Shown: piece after piece, positions 1,578 to 11,172 of the stretch | Position numbering within the stretch: position 1 is the first letter of the stretch | Layout of the letters: every line of letters begins with the position of its first letter | Origin: a virus | Taxonomy: Duplodnaviria > Heunggongvirae > Uroviricota > Caudoviricetes | Virus record (IMG/VR): IMGVR_UViG_2778261217_000001 | Coordinates: 1 to 11,172 of that record | Strand: one strand, 5' to 3' | Length of the DNA: 11,172 nt | Notes under the pieces: generated by a model | The model's database searches: none | What the model was told of the DNA's origin: nothing | Seen by the model: only the letters and a program-made list of their open reading frames with translations | Program-made: the position numbers and the translations under genes

Positions 1578-1652
1578 TAAGGCCATTGTATGGGTATTTT
1601 TAATAGGCTGAAAAATGTTTTTGTAAATGGTGATTATGTTGGAAGGGATAAA
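1509..1652 (+). repeat. In-frame imperfect tandem duplication (copies 1509..1568 and 1593..1652, offset 84 bp) spanning the end of the mini-ORF and the start of the 180-aa gene
   Basis: Peptide GVKNKLKNVSINGDYTGRDK versus GIFNRLKNVFVNGDYVGRDK (14/20 identical); the DNA copies align over about 46 bp at roughly 75% identity. Confidence 0.55.
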
Positions 1653-2132
1653 ATTGTCTATAATACAGAACCCACTCAGCTAATGCTATTGCAAGAGGAG
1701 TATCAGGAAGAGTTTAAAAATAGGCAAATTTGCACAGAAATGATTGATGAACTGAATCATTATAATACCAAAAAAAGTAAAGTGCGTGATTTGGAAGTTA
1801 AACTTAATGCTGCTGGGTACTCTTCCTTTCTTGACGAAGCTCGCGAGTTAAAAGAGTTGGTTTCGAAATTAATTATACAATATCAGCATTATCGCTCAGC
1901 ACAGAAAATAATCGCTTTTTTATTGTCAGACGTTCATTCAATTTTTCAATACAGAATAAAACCTCATATAGTAAATAAACAACAAGAGGCACAGATCCTT
2001 GAATTAATATATTTATATATAGAGTGTGAACTGAGTAGAAAGTTAGGTATAAATGCCTTGGAGATATATAATAGACAATTGCGTGGTATGGTTTTCTTCC
2101 TTACAGGAAACTGTCATTTGGAGTGGGAATAA
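1590..2132 (+). CDS. Hypothetical protein, 180 aa (cargo operon gene A; no recognisable motif)
   Basis: ORF in AT-rich island, same strand as and immediately after the mini-ORF; stop TAA overlaps the next start as TAATG (2130..2134). Confidence 0.6.
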   Translation: MGIFNRLKNVFVNGDYVGRDKIVYNTEPTQLMLLQEEYQEEFKNRQICTEMIDELNHYNTKKSKVRDLEVKLNAAGYSSFLDEARELKELVSKLIIQYQHYRSAQKIIAFLLSDVHSIFQYRIKPHIVNKQQEAQILELIYLYIECELSRKLGINALEIYNRQLRGMVFFLTGNCHLEWE

Positions 2133-2629
2133 TGTTATTATATAACAAGGCATTTGATATCAATCATACTATTCTAAGAATGTCTTCATGGCTGCTAAAT
2201 AGCTCTGAGCCGTTAATAAGTCTTGAGGGTATAAGAATATTTGACTTCTTAATAGCATTTCCTGAGTACATATCCAAGTTATCACTAGGGAAAGAATTAG
2301 TGAAGGAAAGAAATAAGTTCAAAAGGTTTTCTAACCCTTATAATGCTTTTGATCCTCAATCCTTGTTTCAGCAAATGGAAGGGGTGCAAAAATCTGCAAT
2401 TTGTTCTTTAGTAACAGCATCAGTTTTAGTAGAAATTAATAATGAATTATATGAAATAAAAAAAGATAAGTTATATGCGATTGGATTTACCAAAACCAAT
2501 CTTTTTGATAGCATAAACGAAGATGTGATCTCATTTATCAGTAACAATCTTGAGACATTACCTGTAACGGGAATAACTGGACTTAAGGCCGCTAGCAAAT
2601 TAATGAGTTTTAAATATGATCGTATATAA
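2132..2629 (+). CDS. Hypothetical protein, 165 aa (cargo operon gene B; ORF track starts it at GTG 2123)
   Basis: ATG at 2132 overlaps the upstream stop (TAATG); purine-rich ggagtggg at 2120..2127; 3' end overlaps the ATPase gene start by 14 nt. Confidence 0.6.
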   Translation: MLLYNKAFDINHTILRMSSWLLNSSEPLISLEGIRIFDFLIAFPEYISKLSLGKELVKERNKFKRFSNPYNAFDPQSLFQQMEGVQKSAICSLVTASVLVEINNELYEIKKDKLYAIGFTKTNLFDSINEDVISFISNNLETLPVTGITGLKAASKLMSFKYDRI

Positions 2630-4529
2630 TCCCACATTGAATATTAAAAAACTTTACGCATTCAAGGATGGTAAAGAGGTCATACACTTGAAGTTTCATA
2701 ATGGGCTGAATGTCATATATGGCTCGAACGGAAGCGGAAAAACCTCGGCAATTCAGTTACTCGCGTATGTTCTTGGTTCTACGATCTATAATTGGAAAGA
2801 AGAAGCAGGGAGTTGTGATTACGTTATAGCTGAAATTTACGCAAATGAGTCTACTATAACCATTCGTCGTGAGATAAGTGACACAATGGCAGGTATGAGC
2901 ATTTTTTTTGGTACATATGAAGAAAGTATCAAAGCAGGGAAAACTGGATGGTTTAGCTACCCCTACGCAATTTCTACTAACAAGGAAAGTTTTTCACAAC
3001 GTATCTTTGAAATCTTAAACATACCTGAGGCTAAATCTGACGGGATTAATAATCTTACTTTACATCAAATCCTAAGGCTGGTGTATAACAACCAATCTGA
3101 TTCTGCAACAAGTATATTTAACGACGAGAAGTTTGATTCCGCAATAAAACGAGAGTTTGTAAGTAATTATTTGCTCGGTTTGTATGATGATGATCTTTAT
3201 AATAATAAATTAGAGTATATTAAAAAAGAAAAAGAGCTAACAAAAACAATAGCTGAGTTAAAGGGTTTACTATTATTAATAGATGGTCAAGATCTTGATT
3301 TTAAATCTGATAATTTAGATAGCTTATCTGAACAATTACAGGGAAAGATCGATTCTATAATTGAAGAAATTGAAAAGTATAAAGAGTTAGATACACGGAT
3401 AAAATTTAGTAATGAAGTTAAGGCAATTAGTGCAGAACAATTAGTGAAGGATAAGAACAAGCTTATTGCCTTGGAGGTTGAATTAAGTCAAATACAATAT
3501 AATATTGTTGATTCAACCAAATTTATTGAAGAATTACAAAATAAATTACTTGCTATTAATGATTCAATTAAATTTAATAGTTCATTCAAGTTTAAAGAGT
3601 TCGATACCTGCCCATCATGTTTTACTAAGTTGCCAACTGCTCATGATGATAGTAAATGCTCTCTATGTGGTACAGAAGACCCGGATTCGGCAAAGCAAAT
3701 TAATTATGCTAGAATGAAAAATGAAATAATGATTCAAATCAACGAGTCACAAAATCTTTTGGAAAGGAATAAAATAAAGAGTGGTGAGATCTCAAAGCAA
3801 ATAAAATGCTTAAAAAGTGGAATGCGGAAAGAAGTTAACAAAGTTTCGGTTGTTAGTTCATCTTTGAATTCCCATGATGATAGCTTACTTTATAGTAAAT
3901 ATAAAGAGATTGGAGAGCTTGAAGAAAGACTAGATACTTTAGGTCGTATGGAGTCCGTTTATTCAAAAATTAAAACACTTCAGACTCTCCGCGATAGCTT
4001 ACAAGCCAGAGTTACATTTTTACAAGAAAACATTAGTAAAAAAGAACATGATCTTCAGTTAAAAATGCCAGCACTGAAAGAGAAAGTCAGTGAATATATG
4101 GAAGAAGTTTTAACTAAAGATGTCGAAAATATTGATGATCCTCATGATAAAGCTGAATTTAGTAACATAACTAGCATCGACTTTGATCTGGCTTCAAATA
4201 GGATTGTTGTCAATAATAAAGTCTCATTCTCTGAGAGCTCAATGTACTATCTTAATAATGCCCTGCATATAGCATTGCTAAAATTAAGTTTGGTTGATCC
4301 TAATGTAAGATTTCCACGTCTTTTAATTCTGGACGGTATAGAAAATGGTGGCATGGAAGATGCTCGCTCACAGGGTATCCAAAAAACTTTAAAAGAAATT
4401 TCTGATGAGTTTTGCGGGGTTCGGCATCAGATTATTATTACAACTAAAGGAATATACCATGCCGTTGATAATGATAAATATCGAGTTGGAGAAAAATTTA
4501 CTTCATCAAATCGTAGTTTAAATATGTGA
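2616..4529 (+). CDS. SMC/Rad50-like ABC ATPase, 637 aa (Walker A head, long coiled-coil, C-terminal Walker B-like segment)
   Basis: N-terminal LNVIYGSNGSGKTSAIQLLAYVLG (Walker A GSNGSGKT, SMC_N-like); long K/E/L/I-rich heptad-like middle containing CPSC-N13-CSLC (about 3609..3666); C-terminal FSESSMYYLNNALHIALL followed by RLLILDGIENGGMED (hydrophobic run ending in D, Walker B/D-loop-like). Confidence 0.8.
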   Translation: MIVYNPTLNIKKLYAFKDGKEVIHLKFHNGLNVIYGSNGSGKTSAIQLLAYVLGSTIYNWKEEAGSCDYVIAEIYANESTITIRREISDTMAGMSIFFGTYEESIKAGKTGWFSYPYAISTNKESFSQRIFEILNIPEAKSDGINNLTLHQILRLVYNNQSDSATSIFNDEKFDSAIKREFVSNYLLGLYDDDLYNNKLEYIKKEKELTKTIAELKGLLLLIDGQDLDFKSDNLDSLSEQLQGKIDSIIEEIEKYKELDTRIKFSNEVKAISAEQLVKDKNKLIALEVELSQIQYNIVDSTKFIEELQNKLLAINDSIKFNSSFKFKEFDTCPSCFTKLPTAHDDSKCSLCGTEDPDSAKQINYARMKNEIMIQINESQNLLERNKIKSGEISKQIKCLKSGMRKEVNKVSVVSSSLNSHDDSLLYSKYKEIGELEERLDTLGRMESVYSKIKTLQTLRDSLQARVTFLQENISKKEHDLQLKMPALKEKVSEYMEEVLTKDVENIDDPHDKAEFSNITSIDFDLASNRIVVNNKVSFSESSMYYLNNALHIALLKLSLVDPNVRFPRLLILDGIENGGMEDARSQGIQKTLKEISDEFCGVRHQIIITTKGIYHAVDNDKYRVGEKFTSSNRSLNM

Positions 4530-6659: not shown

Positions 6660-6726
6660 ATGACCTTGTTCTGGCTAGCCAGAGAAAGGTGTCATGTCTG
6701 ATCTATACGCTTCCTTTAATACATAC

Positions 6727-6930
6727 TATTCACTACTGTTCACTTCAATAAAAATATAGTAAATACATGTGGTTAAGTGGTGTAGTGTTTTAATTAAAGT
6801 GATCATCTACTGTTCATGACTGTTCACAGAGATAAAATTAAACATATATTTTTTTTTCATATAAGTCGCGATATTTATTTCAGTTTATTACTGGATCTTT
6901 TCTCCTCACCAATATTCACCAGTATTCAAT
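6727..6930. repeat. Iteron-like direct repeats in the AT-rich divergent region (candidate ori)
   Basis: Exact 8-mer actgttca three times in one orientation (6735..6742, 6809..6816, 6819..6826), plus tattcacc (6913..6920) and tattcaat (6923..6930); these resemble the P4 alpha-binding iteron TGTTCACC as I recall it. Confidence 0.35.
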
Positions 6931-7474: not shown

Positions 7475-7735
7475 ATGAATAGTATTTCCGTTTCCACCCC
7501 GGCACCAGCTGCTCCGGTGCTCCCGGTTCCGGCTCAGCAGGAGCGCTTCATACGATTACCTGAAGTGATGCACCTTTGCGGGCTATCCCGTTCAACCATC
7601 TACGACCTTATCAGCCGCGATGCCTTCCCGCAGCAGATATCCCTGGGTGGAAAAAATGTGGCCTGGGTACAGTCGGAGGTCAGTGCATGGATGGCGGCGC
7701 GAATTGCTGCCCGCGAGCAAGGAGGCCATGCGTGA
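7475..7735 (+). CDS. alpA: AlpA-family (Vis-like) phage transcriptional regulator / excisionase-like DNA-binding protein, 86 aa
   Basis: [50 protein letters not shown] is the characteristic AlpA/MerR-like HTH core; SD gagg with 7-nt spacer before ATG 7475. Confidence 0.85.
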
Positions 7736-7770
7736 AACTTGCTTTGCAGTCTCATCTCCTTTTTTCTGGC

Positions 7771-7800
7771 TTGCGTCCTGATATCTTTTCCAGGTATAGT
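7771..7800 (+). promoter_or_regulatory. Candidate sigma70 promoter for the immunity/replication operon (PLE-like)
   Basis: TTGCGT (7771..7776), 18-nt spacer, TATAGT (7795..7800). Confidence 0.35.
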
Positions 7801-7830
7801 TTTCCCGCTGCCGCAAAATCGGCTGCCGGG

Positions 7831-7855
7831 CGTAGGAACCCGAGTTACTTATTGG
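7831..7855 (+). promoter_or_regulatory. seqA-like antisense target site (a/b boxes)
   Basis: gtaggaa (7832..7838) and cttattgg (7848..7855) are exact complements of ttcctac and ccaataag in the downstream antisense element. Confidence 0.4.
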
Positions 7856-7862
7856 CGACACC

Positions 7863-7885
7863 AGACGCGCCGTGCGTCTTTTTTT
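7863..7885 (+). terminator. Intrinsic terminator directly after the seqA-like site
   Basis: Stem agacgc/gcgtct (7863..7868, 7874..7879), loop gccgt, then seven T (7879..7885). Confidence 0.5.
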
Positions 7886-7949
7886 ACGTCGTTGCTCAGG
7901 CACACCCATTTTTCGGGCTGCGGTGCTTATACCTTAGCCCCTTTCAGAT

Positions 7950-8030
7950 AATGGTGGTCCGGGCGGGGCAGCCTTCGGGCTGGCCGGTTTCCAATAAGGC
8001 CGGTATTCCTACCCCCGTTCGGGTCACCAC
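7950..8030 (+). ncRNA. c4/CI-like antisense immunity RNA candidate (boundaries approximate)
   Basis: Structured GC-rich segment with a UUCG-loop hairpin (gggcagcc-ttcg-ggctggcc, 7966..7985) followed by ccaataag (7991..7998) and ttcctac (8006..8012), which pair with two bipartite target sites on the same strand; no plausible ORF. Confidence 0.4.
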
Positions 8031-8037
8031 CCATGAG

Positions 8038-8080
8038 CGTAGGAACTCCGGTGGTGGCATTTACCGCTACTTATTGGAGG
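8038..8080 (+). promoter_or_regulatory. seqC-like antisense target site overlapping the ribosome-binding site of the first small ORF
   Basis: gtaggaa (8039..8045) and cttattgg (8070..8077); the latter runs into GGAGG (8076..8080), the Shine-Dalgarno of the ATG at 8089. Confidence 0.4.
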
Positions 8081-8088
8081 TTGCCCTT

Positions 8089-8280
8089 ATGGCTACGATC
8101 CTCGCCCCGTCACATCCTCAATTTATATTTGTTTTTGCCGCCGTTCGTCGTGCAGAACGTAAACCACGTATCAGTATGCTGCGTATCATCGCCAGCAATG
8201 AGCATCATGCACGTCTTTCACTGGTCCATGAGTATGTGCTTTGTCTTGCTGCTCGCCTGCCTGTCCGGGAGGTGATCTAA
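8089..8280 (+). CDS. Small hypothetical protein, 63 aa (3' part of track ORF 7576..8280; first gene controlled by the antisense module)
   Basis: GGAGG with 8-nt spacer before ATG 8089; stop TAA overlaps the next start (TAATG 8278..8282); same RBS style as the two following ORFs. Confidence 0.4.
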
Positions 8281-8504
8281 TGAATCACGCCGCAATCTCT
8301 TATGACGATATTCTCCGCCTGAAGCATCTTCGTAACGTGGGAGAGTTTGTCACCGGAATGGCTGTTCTTCAGGATTGCTACGAAAAACCTGCCAGTGCTC
8401 AATGTGAACAACTGGTTTCCCTGATTTATCTGATGACAGAGCAGCTTGATGGCGTGGTACAGCGTTGCCAGGATGACCTCATGAACATGGAGGTGGTGCA
8501 ATGA
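8280..8504 (+). CDS. Small hypothetical protein, 74 aa (track ORF 8241..8504 trimmed to the ATG)
   Basis: GGAGG (8268..8272) with 7-nt spacer before ATG 8280; stop overlaps the next start as ATGA. Confidence 0.6.
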
Positions 8505-8824
8505 AATCACGTACTCTTTCCCTTTCACTTCGGGTAGCGTTGTATCGCCGCGCGGTAGCCTGCGCCTGGTTGAGTGCCTGCTATCAGCAAAACCGCCATC
8601 TGCAGCTCACTCTGGATGAAATTGAAACCGCTATTGCCCGTGAGCTTGAAGGATTTTATCTGCGACAGCACGGGCAAACAAAAGGCATGGAAATCGCCTG
8701 CGCCCTGCTTTCAGACCTGATGGAATACGGCCCTCTAATGTCCTGTCCCGCACTCTCCCAGCTCGGAATAGCCGTAATGGATGAGTTATGCGTCCGTCAC
8801 ATCAAAAAGCCGGTTTTACACTGA
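8501..8824 (+). CDS. Small hypothetical protein, 107 aa
   Basis: GGAGG (8489..8493) with 7-nt spacer; ATGA overlap with the upstream stop; ends 14 nt before the primase start. Confidence 0.6.
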
Positions 8825-8838
8825 GGGAGAACTGCGTC

Positions 8839-11172
8839 ATGTCAGGAATGAAAGTCAGTCAGGCCGTGAAGGCTGCCCGCGGTCACTGGGCTCAGATTCT
8901 GCCAGCGCTGGGCGTGAATATATTGAAAAATCGCCATCAGCCTTGCCCGGTCTGTGGCGGTAAAGATCGTTTTCGCTTCGACGATCAGGAAGGACGCGGA
9001 ACATGGTTCTGCAATCAGTGCGGAGCCGGGGATGGTTTAGCGCTTGTCACCAGGGCACTGAATGTGGATATCAGTGAAGCAGCTGACAGGATACATGGAC
9101 TGACACATGATCTGTCTATAGTTAATTCCGAGGTCAGGACGTTAACCGCCGATACCGATAGCGGGAAAGATGCAGCGGCAGCACTTGCCGCGCGACTGCT
9201 GCAAGCCTCGCGTGAATCTGCCGGAAACACTTATCTTACACATAAAGGTTTCCCGGAGCATATTTGCCATGAGCTGACTTCAGCTCATAAGGCCGGTGGT
9301 GTGATGTTCCGCCCCGGTGATTTGATCGTCCCACTCTATAACGCTGACGGGGAGCTGGTGAATATTCAGCTTATCAGTGGCAATGGTAGCAAGTGTTTTC
9401 TTAAAGGAGGTCAGGTTAAGGAGGCCTATCATCTGATAGAAGGGGGCGGGAGTTCTGTAAGAAGGATTTGGATTGCGGAAGGTTACGCCACGGCGCTTAC
9501 CATTCATTATTTGACAGGAGAAGCCGTCATGGTGGCATTTTCGTCGGTCAACTTTCTTTCTCTGAGCAGCGTTGCCCATAATAAGTATCCTGGATATCAG
9601 TTAATTATTGCAGCGGACCGCGATCTGAATGGTTCAGGCCAGAACAGGGCTGAAACTGCTGCAAAAGCGAGTCAGTGTGACATTGTGCTGCCACCGGTTT
9701 TTGGTGACTGGAATGATGCGCTTACCCAATACGGAGAGGAATCCACCAGGACGGCAATTCTTGAGGCTTTGAAGCCACATAACGCCAGTCCTTTCGACAC
9801 AATGAGTGAAGCAGAATTCACAGCGATGAGTGTCAGCGAAAAAGCTCAGAGGGTTCGGGAGCATTACAGGGATGCACTGGCGGTTGATTCGAACGGGCAG
9901 CTTTTATCCCGCTACGAGTCTGGAGCGTGGAAAGTTATTTCTCAGTCAGATTTTGCCCGAGATGTCGCAGCCCTTTTCCAGCGCCTCGGGGCACCGTTTT
10001 CCTCAGGAAAAATTGCCTCACTGGTGGAAACATTAAAGTTAATTGTTCCGCAGCAGCAAAATCCGTCACGTCATCTGATTGGTTTTCGTAATGGCGTTCT
10101 CGATACGCGAACAGGGCTTTTTAGTCCGCACTGTAAAGAGAACTGGCTGCGTACCCTGTGTGAAGTCGATTTCACGCCACCGGTAAAGGGGGAAACGCTT
10201 GAAACTCATGCCCCGGCATTCTGGCGTTGGCTGGACCGGGCCGCCGGACACAAGCCAGCAAAACGCGACATTATTCTTGCAGCGTTATTTATGGTGCTGG
10301 CGAACCGCTATGACTGGCAGCTCTTTCTGGAAGTGACTGGCCCTGGTGGAAGTGGCAAAAGTATTCTGGCTGAAATTGCGACCATGCTTGCTGGAGAGGA
10401 TAACGCCACCTCTGCGACCATTGAAACGCTGGAGTCCCCGCGAGAACGTGCGGCTCTGATAGGTTTTTCTCTTATTCGCCTGCCTGATCAGGAGAAGTGG
10501 AGCGGCGACGGCGCCGGGCTTAAGGCTATAACTGGTGGCGATGCAGTATCTGTGGACCCCAAATATCAGAATGCTTATTCAACACATATTCCGGCGGTTA
10601 TCTTGGCCGTAAATAATAATCCTATGCGCTTCACTGATCGCAGTGGTGGTGTGTCCCGCAGGAGAGTTATTCTGCATTTTCCTGAGCAGATAGCACCGGA
10701 AGAACGCGATCCGCAGTTGAAAGATAAAATTGCACGAGAACTGGCTGTGATTGTTCGTCAGCTCATGCAGCGTTTCAGCGATCCGATGAGCGCCAGAACA
10801 TTGCTTCAGTCGCAGCAGAATTCTGATGAGGCTCTCACCATCAAGCGTGATGCTGATCCAGCATTTGATTTTTGTGGCTACCTTGAGGCATTACCTGACA
10901 CCAACGGCATGTTTATGGGGAACGCCAATATTGTCCCGCGCCAGCCACGTACGTACCTTTACCATGCCTATCTTGTATACATGGAGGCTAATGGCTTTAA
11001 AAATACCCTTAGCCTGACAATGTTTGGCAAAGGGCTACCAGTTATGCTGAAGGAATACGGGCTAAATTATGAGAAGCGGCGAACTAATCAGGGAATGCAG
11101 ACTAACCTCACTTTAAAAGAGGAAAGTAATGCAGACTGGCTTCCCAAGTGTGATGAGCCAACAATCAAATAA
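8839..11172 (+). CDS. alpha: P4 alpha-type primase/helicase, 777 aa (start moved to ATG 8839)
   Basis: N-terminal zinc-binding motif CPVCGGKDRFRFDDQEGRGTWFCNQCG; acidic TOPRIM-like region (IIAADRD); Walker A VTGPGGSGKSILAEIA in the C-terminal half; SD gggaga at 8825..8830. The 777-aa length equals P4 alpha as I recall it. Confidence 0.9.
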   Translation: MSGMKVSQAVKAARGHWAQILPALGVNILKNRHQPCPVCGGKDRFRFDDQEGRGTWFCNQCGAGDGLALVTRALNVDISEAADRIHGLTHDLSIVNSEVRTLTADTDSGKDAAAALAARLLQASRESAGNTYLTHKGFPEHICHELTSAHKAGGVMFRPGDLIVPLYNADGELVNIQLISGNGSKCFLKGGQVKEAYHLIEGGGSSVRRIWIAEGYATALTIHYLTGEAVMVAFSSVNFLSLSSVAHNKYPGYQLIIAADRDLNGSGQNRAETAAKASQCDIVLPPVFGDWNDALTQYGEESTRTAILEALKPHNASPFDTMSEAEFTAMSVSEKAQRVREHYRDALAVDSNGQLLSRYESGAWKVISQSDFARDVAALFQRLGAPFSSGKIASLVETLKLIVPQQQNPSRHLIGFRNGVLDTRTGLFSPHCKENWLRTLCEVDFTPPVKGETLETHAPAFWRWLDRAAGHKPAKRDIILAALFMVLANRYDWQLFLEVTGPGGSGKSILAEIATMLAGEDNATSATIETLESPRERAALIGFSLIRLPDQEKWSGDGAGLKAITGGDAVSVDPKYQNAYSTHIPAVILAVNNNPMRFTDRSGGVSRRRVILHFPEQIAPEERDPQLKDKIARELAVIVRQLMQRFSDPMSARTLLQSQQNSDEALTIKRDADPAFDFCGYLEALPDTNGMFMGNANIVPRQPRTYLYHAYLVYMEANGFKNTLSLTMFGKGLPVMLKEYGLNYEKRRTNQGMQTNLTLKEESNADWLPKCDEPTIK

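Follow-up and report, generated by a model that had tools for sequence, protein, structure and literature searches.

A Probable P4-Type C4/CI Antisense RNA Immunity Module with Its Own Recognition Boxes in an Escherichia coli P4-Like Satellite Prophage

The window analyzed here is a stretch of 11,172 bases (IMG/VR virus record IMGVR_UViG_2778261217_000001), and its gene content and flanking genes identified it as a P4-like satellite prophage of Escherichia coli. Between positions 7771 and 8091, two short sequence boxes each occur twice on one strand, with their reverse complements lying between the two copies. A first-pass annotation, made from the letters of the sequence, had read this arrangement as an antisense RNA immunity module with the architecture known from P4 and from P1/P7. 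The question was whether the region encodes such an RNA, and how closely it follows the described systems. The analysis indicated that it is very probably a P4-type C4/CI antisense immunity module of a P4-like satellite, with a recognition specificity unlike that of P4.

All six boxes lay on the plus strand, and a sequence search found them exactly at the positions first reported. The upstream target consisted of box a1 (GTAGGAA, 7832..7838) and box b1 (CTTATTGG, 7848..7855), and the downstream target repeated the same letters as a2 (8039..8045) and b2 (8070..8077). Between the two targets, their exact reverse complements followed in antiparallel order: the recognition box b' (CCAATAAG in DNA, CCAAUAAG in RNA; 7991..7998) and the recognition box a' (TTCCTAC, or UUCCUAC in RNA; 8006..8012). 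No further copy of any of them was present anywhere in the window. The UUCG hairpin noted ahead of b' and a' was real, with a stem of 7969-7973 and 7978-7982 closed by a tetraloop at 7974-7977.

The scan with the Rfam C4 covariance model, which the first-pass annotation had proposed as a check, was positive. The model (RF01695) matched the plus strand at 7947..8034 over its full length (model positions 1-87 of 87), with 83.4 bits against a gathering score of 45 and an E-value of 1.2e-15. Model and fold agreed on a long basal stem (7952-7968 paired with 8013-8029) enclosing two hairpins, the first (7969-7982) capped by the UUCG tetraloop and the second spanning 7983-8004. The folding check gave the same structure as the C4 consensus, with a minimum free energy (MFE) of -47.2 kcal/mol for 7947-8034 and a z-score of -3.25. 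In this structure, b' occupied the loop of the second hairpin and a' the single-stranded junction after it; these two exposed segments were complementary, exactly and over 7 + 8 nt, to sites upstream and downstream on the same strand. Two C residues directly after the stem (8030-8031) also agreed with the Rfam consensus. For the comparative analysis, 120 IMG/VR loci and 120 genome loci were gathered, all sharing the invariant C4 core. Among 97 distinct relatives, the basal stem was 99.9% paired, with 4 compensatory pairs and 18 extra pair types.

The relatives also showed how the boxes change. In 104 of 111 distinct IMG/VR sequences, a1 and a2 were identical to each other and to the reverse complement of a', and this held across nine types of a'; the apparent mismatches in the b boxes of these 111 sequences were mostly a single terminal G·U wobble. 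When wobbles were counted in 106 distinct relatives, the loops of an element paired on average at 29.1 of 30 positions with the four target boxes of the same element, and 88% of the elements were perfect. When targets were set against the loops of another type, only 20.9 of 30 positions paired and 0.6% were perfect. Nine types of a' and 19 types of b' occurred in 41 combinations, and the surrounding scaffold was conserved. The same matching of own loops to own targets held in the 120 genome loci, which came from Enterobacterales and some Betaproteobacteria and included the genera Erwinia, Serratia, Pantoea, Yersinia, Kluyvera, Rahnella, Ralstonia, and Cupriavidus. Failure of the boxes to be conserved in related satellites had been named beforehand as grounds for abandoning the antisense interpretation. 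Their sequences do vary, but the three copies change together.

The upstream target was itself part of a second RNA. A leader of the isrK family, equivalent to seqA, was found on the plus strand at 7807..7884, where Rfam isrK (RF01394) matched with 72.1 bits against a gathering score of 50 and covered model positions 1-77 of 77. It comprised hairpin 1 (7807-7826), hairpin 2 (7827-7842) with a1 in its loop, a single-stranded stretch containing b1, and a terminator, which is the arrangement of the family. Its helices were 99-100% paired with compensatory changes in the relatives. The intrinsic terminator (7863..7884, plus strand) was recognized by a terminator scan as a 7-bp GC-rich stem followed by U7. 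It began 8 nt after b1, and in the relatives it was 93% paired with 2 compensatory pairs; we take it to be at the position of P4 t1. The Rfam model c4-a1b1 (RF03163) matched at full length over 7794-7846 (E-value 8e-10) and did not reach its gathering score (43.8 against 46.7 bits), but the isrK model spans the same element and passes its own. Ahead of the leader, TTGCGT (7771-7776) and TATAGT (7795-7800), separated by an 18-nt spacer, form a putative constitutive promoter on the plus strand (7771..7800). This candidate was conserved with P4 in the pairwise alignment and was assigned by homology as the equivalent of PLE.

The downstream target coincided with a translation start. Box b2 overlapped the Shine-Dalgarno (SD) sequence GGAGG (8076-8080), which precedes an ATG at 8089 by 8 nt, and the motif GGAG[GA]-N-ATG was conserved among the relatives. 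Nearly all b boxes end in GG because b2 overlaps this conserved SD. The duplex between b' and b2 extended to 10 bp (-12.7 kcal/mol) and took in the GGAG of the SD. The open reading frame (ORF) that starts here (8089..8280, plus strand) is the first gene 3' of the RNA module. Its 63-amino acid (aa) translation is Kil/Icd-like: it matched NCBIfam phage_ICD_like at 6.8e-19 and PHROG 6928/1743, and was 71% identical to the 65-aa ORF at the same place in P4. The ORF ends in a TAA that overlaps the ATG start codon of the following gene (TAATG). Thus an Icd-like ORF with its ribosome-binding site as the second target, the arrangement of P1-type immI, was present. The b2 box and the SD were also hidden in a local hairpin (8046..8079, plus strand), in which an anti-SD CUCC (8046-8049) pairs with GGAG (8076-8079) around an inner stem (8053-8058 with 8066-8071). 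This hairpin was the MFE structure of 8010-8100; in the relatives, pairing reached 97% for the anti-SD helix and 82% for the inner stem, which also showed 3 compensatory pairs. In a different frame, an ORF of 80 aa (8033-8275) overlaps the Kil-like ORF almost fully; it had no family match and is probably spurious.

A further hairpin overlaps the 3' end of the C4 RNA. It spans 8023..8058 on the plus strand and is formed by 8023-8031 and 8050-8058, with a2 in an 18-nt loop. The helix recruits the final 7 nt on the 3' side of the C4 basal stem together with the two C residues that follow, and it is therefore mutually exclusive with the bottom of the C4 stem as well as with the local hairpin that sequesters the SD. 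Its predicted energy was only +3 to +6 kcal/mol over the MFE, and only a weak U tract follows it in this element. Conservation was strong: among the 97 distinct relatives the helix was 98.3% paired with compensatory changes at six of nine pairs, compared with 22-69% in slid controls, and at least eight of the nine pairs were present in 170 of 181 distinct loci (0 and 2 in the control windows). Ralstonia and Cupriavidus retained the helix although its sequence differed there, and it was also found in phiKO2. The helix may be a cis switch or a terminator, and it possibly corresponds to t4, the non-canonical terminator of P4. Weinberg et al. (2010) remarked on a terminator hairpin overlapping the 3' half of P1 and read it as a terminator in several cases, so the helix extends a known remark rather than being a discovery. 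An identification with the structure A/B switch of the IsrK paper was considered and rejected, as helix b-I in that paper is the leader paired with the C4-like region.

The RNA module lies entirely within translated sequence. The first-pass annotation had stated that no ORF explains the region, which was wrong: an ORF at 7576-8280 spans it, and RefSeq annotates a coding sequence (CDS) of 182 aa within it (7732..8280, plus strand) as "Icd-like". This Eta-like ORF starts with GTG at 7732, preceded by an SD AGGAGG at 7720-7725, and holds the putative promoter, both RNAs, and the Kil-like ORF, which is in the same frame as its C-terminal part. PHROG 6928 matched both halves of the 182-aa protein. 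The frame was free of stops across the RNA module in 93 of 100 distinct relatives, with averages of 4.4 and 2.2 stops in the other two frames. Just upstream, an alpA/vis-like gene of 86 aa (7475..7735, plus strand; Pfam Phage_AlpA, 4.2e-20) occupies the same position as ORF88 of P4, and it ends in a TGA (7733-7735) that overlaps the GTG at the beginning of the Eta-like ORF (GTGA, 7732-7735). In 93 of 174 relatives, an upstream ORF (50 codons or longer) likewise ended in a TGA overlapped by an ATG or GTG. The possibility that the 182-aa CDS is an annotation artefact, like the old 137-aa "cI protein" of P4, was rejected because the frame is open in 93 of 100 relatives and because eta has been described in P4. 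In that description (PMC10111431, citing Forti et al., 1999), eta contains a constitutive promoter whose transcript is soon terminated via RNA interactions at CI and seqA; CI RNA is processed out of this transcript, and Kil is a truncated form made on read-through. Full-length Eta, which is coupled to the alpA homologue, is made only from the upstream late promoter, and translating it keeps termination from occurring (PMC10111431). The window showed the same organization, a module inside an Eta-like gene coupled to alpA/vis with a short in-frame Kil-like ORF after the second target. For the DNA that carries two small RNAs, a candidate internal promoter, an internal terminator, and a short ORF nested in the long one, the RefSeq record gives a single CDS and zero RNA genes.

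Direct comparison with P4 supported the P4/P1-type architecture that had first been recognized. The C4 match was accompanied by direct homology to the cI/seqA/seqC region of P4, with ~75% DNA identity over 82% of the query, and P4 gave the same C4 and isrK matches in the same order. In both elements, alpA/vis is followed by a promoter, a leader that has a terminator, the C4-type RNA, the second target, and a short ORF (63/65 aa) that is nested within a longer one; the flanking satellite genes psu, sid-like, delta-like, DUF5375, and alpha primase are shared as well. Homology and synteny within a P4-like satellite were both evident. The difference lay in the boxes: the targets of P4 are GTGAGAA and TTCACAGG, compared with GTAGGAA and CTTATTGG here, and the RNA loops of P4 are CCTGTGAA and TTCTCAC in DNA (CCUGUGAA and UUCUCAC in RNA). 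The scaffold was conserved, and all three copies of both boxes had changed. As both recognition boxes differ from those of P4, heteroimmunity to P4 is predicted. Between the leader terminator and the C4 RNA, the two elements are set apart by two indels, of 29 and 16 nt. They also differ after kil, where a 74-aa PHROG 10110 protein stands in place of epsilon and orf151 is missing; no orf151 homologue was found in the window. The 74-aa protein (8280-8504) occupies the position of P4 epsilon, which acts in helper derepression, without detectable similarity to it, and may be a different helper-interaction protein.

Published work, PMC4825925 included, has equated isrK with seqA and C4 with CI RNA in P4-like prophages, and both motifs, together with a', b', a1b1, and a2b2, were described by Weinberg et al. 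(2010). Since the isrK/seqA and C4/CI RNAs of P4-like prophages are already described, the element as such was known. The module is an ordinary member of this family and differs from P4 only in box sequence and some neighboring genes. The box modules were common to satellites and full-size phages. In phiKO2 (N15-like), the C4 module upstream of icd/antA/antB gave C4, isrK, and c4-a1b1 matches in the same order, and its c4-a1b1 match passed at 49.1 bits, unlike that of the present element. Its a box was identical (GTAGGAA/UUCCUAC), and its alternative helix (TCACCACC/GGTGGTGA) was the one seen here, but phiKO2 is a full-size linear plasmid-prophage with another b box and with antirepressor genes downstream of the module.

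The RNA family membership, the P4 homology, the complementarity, the coordinated box change, the SD overlap, the conserved terminator, and the nested ORF are established from the sequence. On this basis a mechanism was proposed, in which promoter use, RNase P processing, termination, and the immunity phenotype are inferred from the P4 and P1 literature. Transcripts would start at approximately 7807, from a weak constitutive promoter located within the Eta-like gene (-10 at 7795-7800). Most of them would end at 7863-7884 and yield the isrK-like leader RNA with a1 and b1. Read-through transcripts would carry the C4/CI RNA (7952-8029), which would be excised as a stable small RNA of ~78 nt, and its exposed b' (hairpin loop) and a' (junction) would pair with a2/b2 of later transcripts. 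Because b2 runs into the SD of the Kil/Icd-like ORF, this pairing is proposed to block its translation, and the untranslated RNA would then be terminated ahead of the replication genes (the DUF5375 gene and alpha primase). Pairing at a1/b1, beside the leader terminator, would modulate read-through and provide feedback on the synthesis of the RNA itself. When the upstream late promoter is active, ribosomes coupled from alpA would translate the whole Eta-like ORF through the module and override the block. The box sequences would determine which elements are mutually immune, and they would predict which P4-like satellites, and possibly phages, exclude or tolerate one another. A catalogue of immunity types, which builds on a known mechanism, could help explain the co-occurrence of satellites.

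Some points count against this interpretation. A scan with the sigma-70 consensus gave no promoter match at the module, a miss attributed to the weak -35 hexamer, so that the promoter is assigned by its conservation with P4. The literature disagrees on the role of a1/b1, which is described as a requirement for immunity in P4 and as a decoy or activator in P1 and Gifsy-1. Among co-resident copies, 0 of 26 pairs were of identical type when 0.56 were expected, numbers too small to have power.

Two explanations that differ from immunity by C4 pairing at both targets were considered possible, each with a low probability. The first is a positive switch of the IsrK type: the leader (7807-7884) would bind a'/b' through a1/b1, either on the read-through transcript or on free C4, and thereby free a2/b2 and turn on translation of the Kil-like ORF. 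The leader does belong to the isrK family (72.1 bits), and short IsrK of Gifsy-1 has been demonstrated to act in trans as a translational activator of the downstream ORF, while the leader in cis pairs with a C4-like region (PMC4825925). Binding of Hfq, like this trans-activation, is known for Gifsy-1 only. The centroid fold of 7807-8100 predicted the same pairing here, with a1/b1 of the leader bound in cis to b'/a' of the C4 loops. A decoy function of a1/b1 was also proposed for P1 by Citron and Schuster and restated in the supplement of Weinberg et al. (2010). The locus isrK - STnc1160/orf45 - anrP of Gifsy-1 shares with the present one the isrK-family leader, the short and read-through isoforms in principle, and the cis complementarity between leader and C4-like region. 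However, the short RNA of Gifsy-1 leads through translation to prophage induction via AnrP and AntQ; the element here has neither anrP nor antQ, and the homologous element of P4 is tied to immunity. In the direct homologue, P4, seqA was reported to be essential for immunity to become established, and a transposon-directed insertion-site sequencing (TraDIS) study of Salmonella Typhi scored the IsrK-like elements of P4-like prophages as required, which suggests a repressive or maintenance role (PMC3632133). Sequence alone cannot separate a decoy from a co-target, and a positive switch can coexist with C4-mediated immunity as a second layer.

The second explanation, also tentative, is a mechanism of the P1 type only, in which C4 would just block the ribosome-binding site of the Kil/Icd-like ORF and everything else would be Rho-dependent polarity, without a direct effect on intrinsic terminators. 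The overlap of b2 with the SD, the coverage of GGAG by the b'-b2 duplex, the Icd-like nature of the downstream ORF as in P1 immI, and the weak U tract after the alternative hairpin are all consistent with it. The C4 family of Rfam was built around P1 c4, and the RNA of P1/P7 immI, which was compared by description, belongs to it. As in the present module, two boxes recognize an upstream and a downstream target, the latter at the ribosome-binding site of an Icd-like ORF, and the antisense RNA and its targets lie on one transcript. On the other hand, the canonical terminator conserved 8 nt after b1 suits the RNA-assisted termination reported for P4, and the hairpin over the 3' strand of C4 in 170 of 181 loci was taken for a terminator in several cases by Weinberg et al. 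(2010). No coupled downstream antirepressor gene of the P1 type followed the module; the next genes encode the PHROG 10110 protein, DUF5375, and a P4-type primase. P1/P7 has ant, whereas here the controlled genes are satellite replication genes and the module sits within a longer ORF that is translated.

A third explanation, that the region is merely protein-coding and the repeated boxes reflect peptide motifs of the Eta-like ORF instead of RNA pairing, is highly improbable. The frame is indeed open and conserved, and its translation matches PHROG families. But this leaves unexplained the reverse-complement boxes, the coordinated change at three sites in ~40 combinations, the two covariance-model matches with compensatory pairs, and the internal terminator; it is already contradicted by the covariation, and the two roles, coding and RNA, occur side by side here, as has been reported for P4 eta (PMC10111431). 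A chance arrangement can be practically dismissed: among 5000 dinucleotide-preserving shuffles of 7771-8091, with the 7-mer and 8-mer arrangements each scored separately, two direct copies around one reverse-complement copy appeared in 3.3% for a 7-mer, which taken by itself leaves chance some room, but in only 0.14% for an 8-mer, and the recurrence of the arrangement with other sequences in ~200 independent loci has already refuted this explanation.

The distribution of box types among the relatives showed several further features. The combination of this window (TTCCTAC / CCAATAAG) was among the commonest in loci L004-L243. The a and b types reassorted although the six copies are interleaved in the order a1 b1 ... 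b' a' ... a2 b2; with this interleaving, a swap of type calls for several short exchanges or repeated coordinated mutation. One locus (L091, IMGVR_UViG_3300014749_000058) was a mismatched hybrid, with a b' loop of the CTTATTGG type, both targets CTTCAAGG, and matching a boxes. It could be a recent recombinant or an element that is no longer fully self-immune. Apparent intermediates bridged by G·U wobbles were seen in L006, L008, L041, L042, L102, L109, and others: seven loci had CTCAGTGG as b1 but CTCAATGG as b2, and in 22 loci b' began with UC, so that the U faces the last G of the box. Four loci in assemblies labelled as Firmicutes (L157, L178 of Vagococcus sp. WN89Y; L162, L195 of Clostridiales metagenome-assembled genomes) carried the exact enterobacterial C4 core with P4-like flanks, most likely as a result of contamination or mis-binning and not of true host range.

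A more speculative extension, which we regard as rather doubtful, is that the boxes are independent, reassorting modules, that they form a combinatorial immunity barcode on which diversifying selection acts and through which elements sharing one box show partial cross-talk, and that the helix 8023-8031 with 8050-8058 is a general cis switch between production of the immunity RNA and downstream expression. Beyond one sentence in Weinberg et al. (2010), neither the reassortment of boxes nor the cis-switch helix was stated in the literature searched, a set outside which the primary P4, phiR73, and P1 papers lay. A large survey of P4-like satellites did not mention RNA immunity.

The remainder of the window agreed with a P4-like satellite. 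It begins with an integrase gene (1-1260), followed by ABC-3C-type defence genes (1590-4529) encoding a CTD9 domain protein, an MC5 middle component, and an SMC-like ATPase. The delta-like gene, psu, and the sid-like gene are on the minus strand. Downstream of the module are the DUF5375 gene (8501-8824) and the P4-type (alpha) primase gene, which starts at 8839. The 561-base region around the module was 100% identical in many E. coli chromosomes, and matched 1181 of 5426 complete E. coli genomes at some level. In the ORF-poor stretch between the sid-like gene and alpA, repeats ACTGTTCAC / ACTATTCAC at 6724-6756 and 6808-6840 resemble the annotated type-1 iterons of the P4 replication origin (CTGTTCACC), and the stretch 6724-6840 is probably a replication origin. 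The ABC-3C-type genes sit between the integrase gene and the psu side. In strain D6, where the element adjoins a tRNA-Leu gene, the place of the ABC-3C-type genes is taken by SIR2 and ATPase genes beside an identical immunity region, as expected of the defence hotspot of a P4-like satellite.

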